A DNA stretch of 64,000 nt, taken from the NCBI GenBank assembly GCA_951406725.2, contig OX597823.1, positions 24,180,001 through 24,244,000 on the forward strand, written 5' to 3'. The notes below the pieces were generated by a model. The model was given only the letters and a program-made list of their open reading frames with translations, ran no database searches and was not told the DNA's origin. Positions 824-62,972 of this stretch are shown here, piece after piece. The DNA comes from Octopus vulgaris. Its lineage: Eukaryota. Position numbers and translations under genes: made by a program. Numbering within the stretch: the stretch's first letter is position 1; each line of letters starts with the position of its first letter.

Positions 824-1063
824 TTGCTGAGAACCATTTTGTGAAAATAGTAAGTGCAGCTCTAGATATATCTGGGAAAATATTGTGGAAAAAGGAAAGA
901 GTAACAGCAGAAGCCTGTGCAGAAAAATGTGTGTCTGATGAAACTTGTATATCATTTGAAATAATGAAAAAAACTGAGCAATGTTACTTATCAAAGGAAA
1001 GTGCAGCTACCTCTAAGGAAATAAAAGCAGACAATAGCAGAAACTACTATCAACAAGTAAAAC
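824..1063 (+). CDS. Exon A1, PAN/Apple domain type A
   Basis: ttccag|TT...AAAC|gtaatt, 240 nt; [34 protein letters not shown]...YYQ (C-x3-C-x5-C-x11-C PAN core). Confidence 0.9.
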
Positions 1064-62600: not shown

Positions 62601-62972
62601 CATGAATTTACATAAACTGACAAGGCAAGTTAAGTTTAGTCCTCAGTAATTGAGTAAGGGTCACTGATGAGGATTAATTAAATCCAAAATCATCGATGAT
62701 CTGTCTATCTCACTTGCTGTAGGGAGCTTGTCTCCTCTTCATTCTCATCCTCCTCCTAACATACAAATATTCTTGATACCAATTTCTATTATCAATTCCA
62801 GCTCATGCAAATATTAACTGTGGAGCTCCAAAGGAAGTTGTTAGTGCAGTGAAGACCTACAAAACCGCCACCTATAAATCTGAAGTGACCTATACTTGTC
62901 CAAAGGGAGAACAACTAAAGTCCTTATGTGAAAAGAACAATAAATGGTCTCCAATGGTAAAAACCTGTAAAG
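824..62972 (+). CDS. Partial multi-exon gene for a large extracellular PAN/Apple-PAN/Apple-Sushi repeat protein: join(824..1063,7171..7404,11577..11747,17649..17888,24342..24575,30361..30531,38104..38274,40739..40978,47681..47914,50524..50694,54975..55211,60936..61169,62802..62972)
   Basis: 13 paralogous open segments, each preceded by a pyrimidine tract + AG and followed by GT at homologous positions. All are phase 1-1, total 2748 nt, with no stops and conserved Cys patterns. No start, signal peptide, TM segment or stop is in the window. That all exons join in one transcript is an inference. Confidence 0.85.
2149..5218 (-). mobile_element. Decayed R4/Dong-like non-LTR retrotransposon (RT + zinc knuckle + restriction-like endonuclease)
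   Basis: Minus-strand fragments [33 protein letters not shown] (RT); [19 protein letters not shown] (CCHC/RHD); many stops and frameshifts; bounded by TAA-type repeats. Confidence 0.8.
5219..5278. repeat. (ATT)n microsatellite
   Basis: Direct reading; others at 8515-8625 (AAT), 13044-13082, 25957-26040 (CTT/ATT) and 41330-41386 (AGT). Confidence 0.95.
6062..7010 (-). mobile_element. 3' fragment of R4/Dong-like element (RLE domain)
   Basis: [21 protein letters not shown]...LIELSCPFD...KYNPL..IIGALG; (TTG)n tract at the 3' end. Confidence 0.75.
7171..7404 (+). CDS. Exon B1, PAN/Apple domain type B
   Basis: ttctag|CT...CCAG|gtcagt, 234 nt; [28 protein letters not shown]...WDTY. Confidence 0.9.
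7520..8100 (-). mobile_element. RTE-type LINE 3' remnant
   Basis: Minus-strand reading ...[13 protein letters not shown]...[21 protein letters not shown] resembles the RTE C-terminal C2H2-like end. Confidence 0.5.
8100..8900 (+). mobile_element. Penelope-like element 3' remnant (GIY-YIG C-terminus + 3' region)
   Basis: [12 protein letters not shown]...[20 protein letters not shown]....LNRKLEW; hammerhead-like motif at 8854-8898. Confidence 0.6.
9034..9850 (+). mobile_element. Non-autonomous Helitron-like element
   Basis: A|TCTATATATATAAAACT...GCACGAGCTGGGCAATACTGCTAG|T: 5' TC, 3' CTAG, A/T insertion site, no TSD; termini shared with the elements at 18502 and 23841-24234. Confidence 0.65.
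10660..10960 (+). mobile_element. Penelope-like RT fragment
   Basis: [37 protein letters not shown] resembles the PLE RT segment after YxDD (FLDVTLDL...Y.PY). Confidence 0.5.
11028..11180. repeat. (CTAT)n microsatellite
   Basis: Direct reading; generates the spurious YLSI-repeat ORFs. Confidence 0.95.
11577..11747 (+). CDS. Exon C1, Sushi/CCP domain (missed by ORF track)
   Basis: ttctag|TT...GATG|gtaacg, 171 nt; [52 protein letters not shown] (4 Cys + Trp). Confidence 0.88.
12370..12880 (+). mobile_element. R4/Dong-like 3' fragment (RLE)
   Basis: HNRPDLVVV..., [20 protein letters not shown]...[18 protein letters not shown]; flanked by TAA repeats on both sides. Confidence 0.75.
13082..14880 (+). 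mobile_element. 5'-truncated R4/Dong-like non-LTR retrotransposon
   Basis: [27 protein letters not shown] (RT); [45 protein letters not shown] (RLE); in-frame stops; starts immediately after (AAT)n. Confidence 0.88.
14883..15550 (+). mobile_element. Mariner transposase remnant
   Basis: [31 protein letters not shown]; ends YFEGD*. Confidence 0.75.
15916..16038 (+). repeat. Intronic near-identical copy of the 3' half of exon A2 (17746-17868)
   Basis: About 123 bp match at offset 1830 with 2 mismatches by eye; lacks the exon's splice sites. Confidence 0.92.
17649..17888 (+). CDS. Exon A2, PAN/Apple type A
   Basis: atctag|AT...AACC|gtaaat, 240 nt; [31 protein letters not shown]. Confidence 0.9.
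19980..21460 (+). mobile_element. RTE-type LINE 3' fragment with a repeat-rich 3' UTR, preceded by a SINE-like head
   Basis: [37 protein letters not shown]; tail ends in (GAT)n; related copies at 57100-57740(-), 60200-60490(+) and 37740-38020(-). Confidence 0.75.
21700..21990. repeat. Long imperfect palindrome (foldback/MITE-like) within TA repeats
   Basis: About 135 bp arm 21700-21835 is the reverse complement of about 21856-21990; about 20 bp spacer. Confidence 0.85.
23841..24234 (-). mobile_element. Non-autonomous Helitron-like element
   Basis: Minus strand A|TCTTTATATATAAAAGTGAGG...CCCGAGCAACACCGGGCGATACTACAAG|T with a subterminal hairpin. Confidence 0.7.
24342..24575 (+). CDS. Exon B2, PAN/Apple type B
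   Basis: atccag|CC...CCAG|gtcagt, 234 nt; [26 protein letters not shown]. Confidence 0.9.
25350..25660 (-). mobile_element. tRNA-derived SINE
   Basis: Minus-strand head GGAGGCGCAATGGCCCAGTGGTTAGGG (A box)...GTTTCAATTCCC (B box); its 3' part recurs in the opposite orientation at 36942-37041. Confidence 0.75.
27000..27870 (-). mobile_element. RTE-like LINE RT remnant
   Basis: [34 protein letters not shown]-like motif; frameshifted. Confidence 0.7.
27872..27967 (+). repeat. Rearranged intronic copy of two pieces of the exon B2 region
   Basis: 27872-27893 equals 24576-24597 (donor + intron); 27899-27967 matches 24417-24485 (exon interior, 3 mismatches). Confidence 0.88.
28030..29600 (-). mobile_element. 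RTE-type LINE remnant (APE to RT region)
   Basis: [27 protein letters not shown]...[15 protein letters not shown] (APE C-terminus); [18 protein letters not shown] RT start. Confidence 0.75.
30361..30531 (+). CDS. Exon C2, Sushi/CCP
   Basis: cttcag|TT...AAAG|gtaatg, 171 nt; [12 protein letters not shown]...[26 protein letters not shown]. Confidence 0.88.
31009..35410 (+). mobile_element. Near full-length decayed Penelope-like element with pseudo-LTRs
   Basis: RT motifs [75 protein letters not shown]; direct repeats about 31235-31370 and 35275-35410; inverted copy at 31009-31151. Confidence 0.85.
37440..37740 (-). mobile_element. Penelope-like GIY-YIG fragment
   Basis: [35 protein letters not shown]...LSEHIEKC. 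Confidence 0.7.
38104..38274 (+). CDS. Exon C3, extra (orphan) Sushi/CCP
   Basis: tttcag|TT...AATG|gtaatg, 171 nt; [12 protein letters not shown]...[26 protein letters not shown]. Confidence 0.85.
39500..39850 (-). mobile_element. Helitron Pif1-type helicase fragment
   Basis: [45 protein letters not shown] (Pif1 motifs II-III, GDFRQ.LPV). Confidence 0.8.
40739..40978 (+). CDS. Exon A3, PAN/Apple type A
   Basis: ttccag|TT...AACC|gtaatt, 240 nt; [31 protein letters not shown]. Confidence 0.9.
43742..43925 (-). mobile_element. R4/Dong-like extreme 3' fragment
   Basis: [22 protein letters not shown]...[17 protein letters not shown]. Confidence 0.7.
43930..44635. mobile_element. Cluster of three related SINE copies (one minus, two plus)
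   Basis: Shared core CCCGAAAGGATGAAAGGTAAAGTCGACC and its reverse complement GAGGTCAACTTTGCCTTTCATC; degenerate relatives at about 17170-17340, 54540-54690 and 63600-63760. Confidence 0.7.
44650..47070 (+). mobile_element. Second copy of the same Penelope-like family, internally deleted
   Basis: Aligns with 32420-35410 ([40 protein letters not shown]); about 0.5 kb RT deletion at about 45172 joined at an AGTG microhomology; 3' pLTR at 46920-47070. Confidence 0.85.
47681..47914 (+). CDS. Exon B3, PAN/Apple type B (most divergent)
   Basis: atccag|CC...CAAG|gtcagt, 234 nt; [28 protein letters not shown]. Confidence 0.88.
49697..50295 (-). mobile_element. Mariner remnant
   Basis: [11 protein letters not shown]...TAEEIQ...[21 protein letters not shown]. 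Confidence 0.75.
50524..50694 (+). CDS. Exon C4, Sushi/CCP
   Basis: tttcag|CT...AGAG|gtaatg, 171 nt; [12 protein letters not shown]...[26 protein letters not shown]. Confidence 0.88.
50887..51107. mobile_element. piggyBac-type MITE with TTAA TSD
   Basis: TTAA|CCTTTTGATACC...GATAACAAAAGGG|TTAA; empty site in the paralogous intron at about 11935-11960. Confidence 0.8.
52514..53801 (-). mobile_element. Near full-length decayed mariner element
   Basis: [36 protein letters not shown]; degenerate TIRs (TCAAAAAGTATC / GATACTTTTT); absent from the paralogous intron at about 16450. Confidence 0.85.
54975..55211 (+). CDS. Exon A4, PAN/Apple type A (one codon shorter)
   Basis: ttctag|AT...AAAC|gtaatt, 237 nt (frame-preserving 3-nt indel); [31 protein letters not shown]. 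Confidence 0.9.
56548..57809. mobile_element. hAT (Charlie-like) MITE with a nested RTE LINE 3' fragment (minus strand)
   Basis: TIRs CAGTGGTTCC / GGAACCACTG; 8-bp TSD TTATAGCA / TTATAACA; nested [16 protein letters not shown]...[13 protein letters not shown]. Confidence 0.75.
60200..60490 (+). mobile_element. RTE LINE fragment
   Basis: [18 protein letters not shown]...ARIRI...LKGRLYD. Confidence 0.7.
60936..61169 (+). CDS. Exon B4, PAN/Apple type B
   Basis: atctag|CC...CCAG|gtcagt, 234 nt; [26 protein letters not shown]...WDTY. Confidence 0.9.
61262..62545 (-). mobile_element. Decayed Tc1/mariner element, DD37D (maT-like)
   Basis: [26 protein letters not shown] with 37 residues between the second D and the mutated third position; degenerate TIRs CAGGGTGAATGAATAAACT / AATTTACCCATCACACCTTG. 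Confidence 0.8.
62802..62972 (+). CDS. Exon C5, Sushi/CCP
   Basis: ttccag|CT...AAAG|gtaatg, 171 nt; [12 protein letters not shown]...[26 protein letters not shown]. Confidence 0.88.

Follow-up and report, generated by a model that had tools for sequence, protein, structure and literature searches.

A predicted 349-exon octopus gene that may encode a giant secreted PAN-PAN-Sushi protein

The best described analogue, in the way it works, of the protein considered here is Drosophila Dumpy, a huge extracellular protein in which small disulfide-bonded modules number in the hundreds, with a ZP domain and a membrane anchor, whereas titin, intracellular and Ig/Fn3-based, is comparable in exon number and in having domain super-repeats but shows no homology. 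Dumpy is given as 2.5 MDa with 78 coding exons (PMC10895422), and titin as having 363 exons and up to 38,000 amino acids (PMC5498329). The PAN fold occurs in the N-domains of HGF and plasminogen, in factor XI and prekallikrein, in Toxoplasma MIC4 and in Sarcocystis SML-2, where it binds heparin, galactosides or partner peptides, and each of these proteins has at most a handful of PAN domains. A C-terminal GON domain (PF08685) is found in ADAMTS9, ADAMTS20 and GON-1, and that of ADAMTS9/GON-1 is described as supporting endoplasmic reticulum (ER)-to-Golgi transport (PMC3338439). Here we analyzed a window of 64,000 nucleotides from Octopus vulgaris (contig OX597823.1, here C10, positions 24,180,001-24,244,000 of the 2.80-Gb genome G000), in which an array of exons for PAN and Sushi (complement control protein, CCP) domains runs on the + strand. 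On balance we favour the reading that the window lies midway in a single intact gene for a secreted, unanchored chain of ~24,350 residues, a polyanion-glycan-binding filament of mucus or matrix. Compared with Dumpy, to which it is unrelated, this gene has PAN and Sushi instead of EGF and DPY modules, 349 exons with one domain per exon, and a GON end.

An unbiased scan for open, phase 1-1 segments bounded by AG and GT recovered all 13 window exons of the original prediction, with their coordinates, their order (ABC ABC C ABC ABC), their sizes of 240 (237), 234 and 171 nucleotides for A, B and C, and their share of about 4% of the window (2,748 nucleotides, 4.3%). The last base of all 13 is C or G, and not one of the 8 junction codons they can form is a stop. 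The assignment of A and B to PAN and of C to Sushi was borne out by Pfam profiles as well as by the fold comparison given below: PAN_1 scored above its gathering cut-off (21.4 bits) in 8/8 A and B exons (29.4-47.3 bits), and Sushi was the top match in 5/5 C exons, exceeding its cut-off (20.7) in two. Paralogous exons within the window match one another at tblastn E-values of 1e-10 to 1e-27, far beyond chance.

The window is a small part of the array. Genome searches placed 107 of 109 A matches (150 of 167 candidates scored), 105 of 116 B matches (150 of 185 candidates scored) and all 134 C matches (138 of 138 candidates scored) on the + strand of C10 between 23.27 and 24.99 Mb, and none of the matches on this array contains a stop. 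Exons were then mapped in C10:23,180,001-25,044,000, 1.864 Mb that contain no N, where we found 345 full exons (106 A, 105 B and 134 C), one 201-nucleotide B variant and 2 truncated copies, with no strong repeat exon on the minus strand. Every mapped repeat exon has AG/GT ends and is phase 1-1, and all 345 full exons are open with at least four cysteines (four in 342, five in 3). The introns have a median length of 4.0 kb, and none of the 344 consecutive exon junctions creates a stop codon. The 13 exons first noticed thus make up ~4% of an array that continues for ~0.8 Mb on each side, and the scale had been underestimated ~26-fold.

Most of the array belongs to one gene, gene 2, at C10:23,362,495-25,003,050 (+), which spans 1,640,556 bp with 349 predicted coding exons and 348 introns. 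Between 2 signal-peptide-like exons and 4 GON exons lie 343 repeat exons (105 A, 105 B and 133 C), and the 349 exons, all AG/GT-bounded, join into a single frame of 73,059 nucleotides with its sole stop codon in the last exon. This frame encodes 24,352 amino acids (~2.75 MDa, 1,390 cysteines) in 105 units, of which 73 are ABC, 27 ABCC, 3 AB and 2 ABCCC; the gene ends A-B-GON, the final Sushi missing. The 201-nucleotide B exon (C10:24,093,506-24,093,706, L092) has a rewritten N-terminal third and is kept at 82% in the O. bimaculoides protein P0008.

The ends of the gene were defined by exons that do not belong to the repeats. In ungapped scans exon 1, its 5' flank, exon 2 and the first and last GON exons were each found at exactly two places in the 1.864 Mb, one in each gene, which defines two genes; the next-best matches to the leader and GON exons reach 51-72%, and GON exon 1 has 2 matches in the whole genome (11/11 candidates scored). 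The 72% match to exon 1, at C10:24,823,837, was set aside as it has no start codon in register. The other gene, gene 1 (C10:23,269,851-23,294,202, L009-L012), lies 68 kb upstream of gene 2 and consists of leader-A-B-C-GON in 9 exons. Its predicted length of 465 amino acids and its domain order equal those of the Abdopus record GON-Abd-1 (P0011, UniRef R4G2C1), which provides a check on the exon-calling rules; gene 1 is the orthologue of GON-Abd-1. The Abdopus record reportedly stems from the venom-gland survey of Ruder et al. in 2013. Exons 1 and 2 of the giant gene are paralogues of the sister leader exons (87% and 73% identical) and carry a hydrophobic stretch, and the 5' flanks are 83% identical. 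At the other end, the O. bimaculoides protein P0004 is collinear with the last 11 repeat exons and then GON, matching the four terminal exons at 80-86% and the GON profile at 114.8 bits. Outside the repeats, the sequences of P0004 and GON-Abd-1 map to just two places. Of the ends to be sought in neighbouring sequence according to the original prediction, signal-peptide-like exons and a terminal domain were thus found, and no hydrophobic anchor was found in the C-terminus after GON.

Public annotations imply a different picture, in which the array would be several shorter genes or would use promoters and poly(A) sites of its interior. Along the array, three Octopus species have separate loci of 667-4,470 amino acids in RefSeq and GenBank, some introns are as long as 19 kb, and an unrelated internal first or last exon would escape the exon searches made. 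Against this, the sequence scans found no leader or GON exon copies inside the array and no further recurrent exon class between the repeats (27 exon-like candidates on the + strand vs 28 on the control strand; the recurrent exon-like segments there resemble what we take to be retroelement reverse transcriptase). Furthermore, the public models named O. vulgaris and O. sinensis (380-4,470 amino acids) are fragments that tile the single frame of gene 2, matching its exons at 96-100% in older array parts and often starting or ending inside the array with no signal peptide or GON of their own. We consider separate genes quite unlikely; the public annotations split the gene into small unnamed fragments.

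We also asked how the repeats have been maintained. Mean pairwise identity among repeats is 58% for A, 46% for B and 58% for C, and 202 of the 345 full exons are less than 80% identical to their nearest paralogue, so that the array does not consist of collapsed or duplicated reads. Nearest-paralogue pairs differ by 0.24-0.36 synonymous substitutions per site (dS), with ratios of nonsynonymous to synonymous change (dN/dS) of 0.63 (A), 0.53 (B) and 0.47 (C). In a substitution-only simulation of neutral decay at 0.05 substitutions per site, an exon keeps its frame and splice sites with P 0.50 and all 342 do so with P ~1e-102; in the 1.864 Mb we found no decayed full-length exon, only the 2 truncated copies. 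The lack of dead full exons, the dN/dS values and the order kept in O. bimaculoides show that the repeats are translated and selected. A silent or decaying array, or an assembly artefact, would be in keeping with a giant gene that we know here only from the genome, but this is highly improbable given the lack of any N, a neutral survival of P ~1e-102 or lower at realistic divergence, and an exon order that is collinear in other species.

An exon most often has its nearest paralogue 13, 26 or 39 exons away (74, 32 and 24 of 345). Adjoining blocks of 13 exons, each 60-83 kb long, have 32-51% of their DNA in common, with an identity of 75-82%; for the window's older block the values are 26% and 72%. 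O. bimaculoides models from old regions follow the O. vulgaris order in 10/11 (ending in GON), 9/10, 20/25 and 11/16 consecutive best-match steps and those from young blocks in 8/23 and 1/10, and for O. sinensis models the steps are 35/35 and 8/8. The array therefore predates the split from O. bimaculoides and has since kept growing or homogenising. Judged from these repeat patterns, it grew by tandem copying of 13-exon super-repeats, which agrees with the earlier proposal of unequal crossover or tandem duplication, as some blocks are younger than the split. The gene probably goes back to a one-unit ancestor resembling its neighbour, whose symmetric phase-1 exons were duplicated in tandem again and again, lately as blocks of 60-83 kb and 13 exons.

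The main rival, put forward in the original prediction, is one gene with heavy alternative splicing, where long runs of units would be skipped, and exon 2 and GON would frame a variable subset of the 105 units and yield many different shorter proteins for recognition. Every repeat exon is phase 1-1, and 59,287 of 59,340 possible forward skips stay open; the repeats are as diverse as described above, unit content is flexible (C is missing from 3 units and extra in 29), and the one-unit sister shows that a short product is viable. However, the exons are interleaved as ABC and not sorted by type as in mutually exclusive clusters, and no full-length exon has decayed, as expected if any loss breaks the whole chain. 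The C or G at every exon end, offered as a design that keeps junctions free of stops in any combination, holds within the window but not over the array, because T is the last base of 44 of the 106 A exons and stops arise in 53 forward skips, and a G in the last position is ordinary splice-donor context. A spliced repertoire is accordingly possible but clearly the less probable alternative, and the interleaved order and lack of dead exons favour, without proving it, mostly constitutive exon use. Two known layouts were also compared and rejected: Dscam-type mutually exclusive exon clusters, as there are no same-type blocks, and variable first exons of the protocadherin/UGT1 type, as leader exons occur only twice in 1.864 Mb, once per gene. 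By exon content and order, the giant gene is best described as a ~100-fold expansion of a small molluscan PAN-Sushi-GON family and not as a Dscam-like cassette.

Domain folds were examined in the model of the one-unit relative P0011, which has a predicted local distance difference test score (pLDDT) of 90.3. Here A matches the HGF N-domain (Z 12.6, root-mean-square deviation (rmsd) 1.9, 79 aligned), B a kallikrein apple domain (Z 8.5, rmsd 2.8, 77 aligned) and C CCP modules (Z 5.5-7.1, rmsd ~2; at Z 7.1, rmsd 2.1, 53 aligned), and a PDB sequence search agrees weakly, with CD55 and MIC4. In the exons, four cysteine columns are at least 95% conserved in A and in B, as in the four-cysteine PAN core, and four cysteines, a tryptophan and a proline are at least 95% conserved in C, the Sushi C-C-C-W-C pattern. 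The apple subtype of factor XI and MIC4, with a third, end-to-end disulfide and six cysteines, does not apply, as four are present in 106/106 A and 104/105 B exons. The GON domain of P0004 was modelled with a pLDDT of 90.2 and a predicted template modelling score of 0.88 (m4cc99a53a737). Against the PDB it gave no clear match (Foldseek none at E 0.001; best Z 3.6), and the faint resemblance that its first 70 residues bear to the procollagen C-propeptide/fibrinogen N-subdomain (Z 3.1; Pfam COLFI below cut-off) is a lead only.

Based on these results we propose that splicing joins most exons one after another into a ~73-kb transcript, whose product would comprise a putative signal peptide, 105 PAN-PAN-Sushi units and one C-terminal GON domain, with no membrane anchor. 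Each disulfide-held domain would form a bead, and as such domains measure ~3-3.5 nm the chain would reach ~1 micrometre. The protein has 3,934 lysines and arginines vs 2,924 aspartates and glutamates, and the mean net charge per domain is +7.4 for A-type PAN, +2.7 for C and -0.6 for B. The basic A-type domains may grip polyanions as the HGF N-domain grips heparin, divergence among repeats may broaden the range of ligands, and a cationic filament with many hands could cross-link negatively charged glycans in mucus or extracellular matrix. By analogy with ADAMTS9/GON-1, GON may help ER export of the bulky chain; alternatively it may cap or oligomerise it. A leader, 343 small disulfide-bonded modules, no enzyme, no anchor and a strong positive charge would fit such a multivalent secreted glycan-binding filament.

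Possibly, the giant is instead an active saliva or venom component that binds prey surfaces or carries and presents enzymes. The family is evidently translated in a secretory gland, since a protein group that includes R4G2C1 is listed in the posterior salivary gland proteome of O. vulgaris with 18 peptides and 43.1% coverage, its best match being a 465-amino-acid O. bimaculoides protein at 87% (PMC7693380 Table S1); we infer that this group is gene 1. Exon 1 and the 5' flank are common to both genes, as given above, and leech salivary PAN proteins are among the fold neighbours (LAPP, Z 9.5). However, the giant lacks a catalytic domain, a chain of 2.75 MDa is ill-suited to diffusion in prey, and the placement in the salivary gland concerns the sister and not the giant gene. 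A role in saliva or venom therefore appears unlikely.

Taken as a whole, the data lead us to lean towards the view that octopuses make a single secreted PAN-PAN-Sushi filament of 2.75 MDa and about a micrometre in length, larger than Dumpy and, among the genes compared, second only to titin in coding exons, which evolved from a 465-amino-acid salivary-gland protein by ~100-fold duplication of exon blocks, is still changing in length between species and has been hidden by split annotation. Several points weigh against this view. What the intact exons show is that each one is used; they do not show that a single molecule contains all of them, and symmetric exons permit skipping; in addition, the public gene models end after 667-4,470 amino acids and some skip exons. 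A dN/dS near 0.5-0.6 means only moderate constraint. In four C exons the donor was set 6 nucleotides downstream to retain the fourth (last) cysteine, either choice being in frame, one B exon is the atypical 201-nucleotide variant, and the putative leader has a charged residue within its hydrophobic stretch. The structure models are those of P0011 and of the P0004 GON domain and not of the joined sequence of gene 2 itself. The giant product is known here from genome sequence; we infer its full-length splicing, tissue and function, and draw by analogy only that it binds glycans, that it forms a filament and what GON does.

Relatives were sought with P0011, which gave 680 matches at E 0.001 among 1.84 billion representatives; the best 150 were examined. 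Many of these are PAN-(Sushi)-GON proteins of 280-410 amino acids, named from Lottia, Patella and cuttlefish in the 10 clusters looked up, and repeated ABC units were found in octopod entries only. Together with the single frame of 349 exons, this supports the original prediction of a lineage-expanded giant extracellular protein. Among longer proteins, a profile search gave 12 matches, ten of them named from octopods and two with GON (P0004 and GON-Abd-1). The giant shares with GON-Abd-1 and the sister gene the leader exons, the A-B-C unit and the four GON exons (GON ~60% identical), but these have one unit in 465 amino acids vs its 105. Lottia P0013, Patella P0022 and P0170, and cuttlefish GON-Sep-2 and CAE1175485.1 likewise have a hydrophobic leader, PAN, a Sushi-like segment and a C-terminal GON, but are ~290-410 amino acids long with at most one PAN and no repeated ABC unit. 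Compared with the handful of PAN domains, at most, in HGF or MIC4, the giant interleaves 210 PAN with 133 Sushi domains. An ADAMTS9/20/GON-1 type metalloprotease was rejected, as Pfam scans of P0004 and P0011 gave no Reprolysin or TSP1 and there is no extra exon class; gene 1, with no protease domain, indicates that GON alone does not make a metalloprotease. The automatic name SVEP1 on P0007, P0016 and P0158 was also rejected, as these fragments hold A, B and C only and no vWA, EGF or pentraxin.

No literature naming the giant gene or its architecture was found in the sources searched, which did not extend to subscription journals, also when six accessions were used, and term look-up in PMC7656900, PMC12607849, PMC4280546 and bioRxiv 10.64898/2026.04.09.716377, the last without its supplements, gave no mention of GON or PAN. 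The domains and the one-unit family are already known, and it is the 105-unit, 349-exon member that is absent from the literature searched. The statement in the original prediction that no characterised protein with the repeated triplet is recognised needs correcting, as the unit is that of a small PAN-(Sushi)-GON family of molluscs, which has a one-repeat member next door. PAN pairs of the A-B kind are present as well in unrelated octopus genes on C13, C17 and C18 (L182, L186-L187, L191-L193, L194-L195). These include a four-PAN secreted protein (like Argonauta P0024), a PAN-PAN-Thr-rich protein (like P0103), a head-to-head pair matching P0085 and P0118, and, in two copies, PAN-PAN followed by what is presumably a VWD-like region (like P0066).

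Table 1. Repeat exons and truncated exon copies in the window (positions count from the first nucleotide of the 64,000).
Feature	Position	Strand	Remarks
Whole window, inside one predicted gene	1..64000	+	Holds one 13-exon block; distance to the downstream stop 37.7-40.2 kb in coding sequence
Exon A1, PAN type A, 240 nt, phase 1-1, 4 Cys	824..1063	+	PAN_1 37.3 bits
Exon B1, PAN type B, 234 nt	7171..7404	+	PAN_1 34.0 bits
Exon C1, Sushi/CCP, 171 nt	11577..11747	+	Sushi 20.3 bits, slightly below cut-off 20.7
Truncated intronic copy, 3' half of exon A2, no splice sites (AG/GT)	15916..16038	+	98.4% over 123 nt
Exon A2, PAN type A, 240 nt	17649..17888	+	Splice/frame and Pfam
Exon B2, PAN type B, 234 nt	24342..24575	+	Splice/frame and Pfam
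Truncated intronic copy, part of exon B2, no splice sites	27896..27973	+	92.3% over 78 nt
Exon C2, Sushi/CCP, 171 nt	30361..30531	+	Splice/frame and Pfam
Exon C3, second Sushi of CC pair, 171 nt	38104..38274	+	Splice/frame and Pfam; 27 ABCC among 105 units
Exon A4, PAN type A, 240 nt	40739..40978	+	Splice/frame and Pfam
Exon B4, PAN type B, 234 nt	47681..47914	+	Splice/frame and Pfam
Exon C4, Sushi/CCP, 171 nt	50524..50694	+	Sushi 24.9 bits
Exon A5, PAN type A, 237 nt	54975..55211	+	Splice/frame and Pfam
Exon B5, PAN type B, 234 nt	60936..61169	+	Splice/frame and Pfam
Exon C5, Sushi/CCP, 171 nt	62802..62972	+	Sushi 21.3 bits

Within the window, tblastn gave no sign of lost A-B exons between C2 and C3, and such CC pairs occur regularly in the super-repeat of 13 exons. 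The sole two truncated exon copies in the 1.86 Mb both lie here, each within 2-4 kb of its source exon; the original prediction had missed them. Open stretches at 33069-34500 (+), 46268-46444 (+), 57424-57669 (-) and 37786-37956 (-) look like retroelement remnants, with no Pfam match over cut-off (five intronic open stretches scanned). The A exons that flank the window, at C10:24,168,167 and 24,248,704, are 94% identical, while their neighbours are ~60-70% identical to any paralogue, and single-exon gene conversion is a possible explanation.

Splicing in full would make the product one of the largest secreted proteins recorded; the splitting of its gene into unnamed pieces in three Octopus annotations has kept it from notice. 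With a one-unit ancestor type 68 kb away, blocks that can be dated against O. bimaculoides and one domain per exon, the locus is a natural experiment in exon shuffling. It raises the questions of how ordered splicing is achieved in a gene of 1.64 Mb and 348 introns and of how the ER releases a chain of 2.75 MDa with ~690 disulfides, for which it may serve as a test bed for GON, a domain without a close solved structure. It also raises the question of which octopus secretion, whether saliva, mucus, egg coat or sucker cuticle, needs a giant protein. If the exons were instead skipped combinatorially, the locus would represent a new layout for a large repertoire gene.

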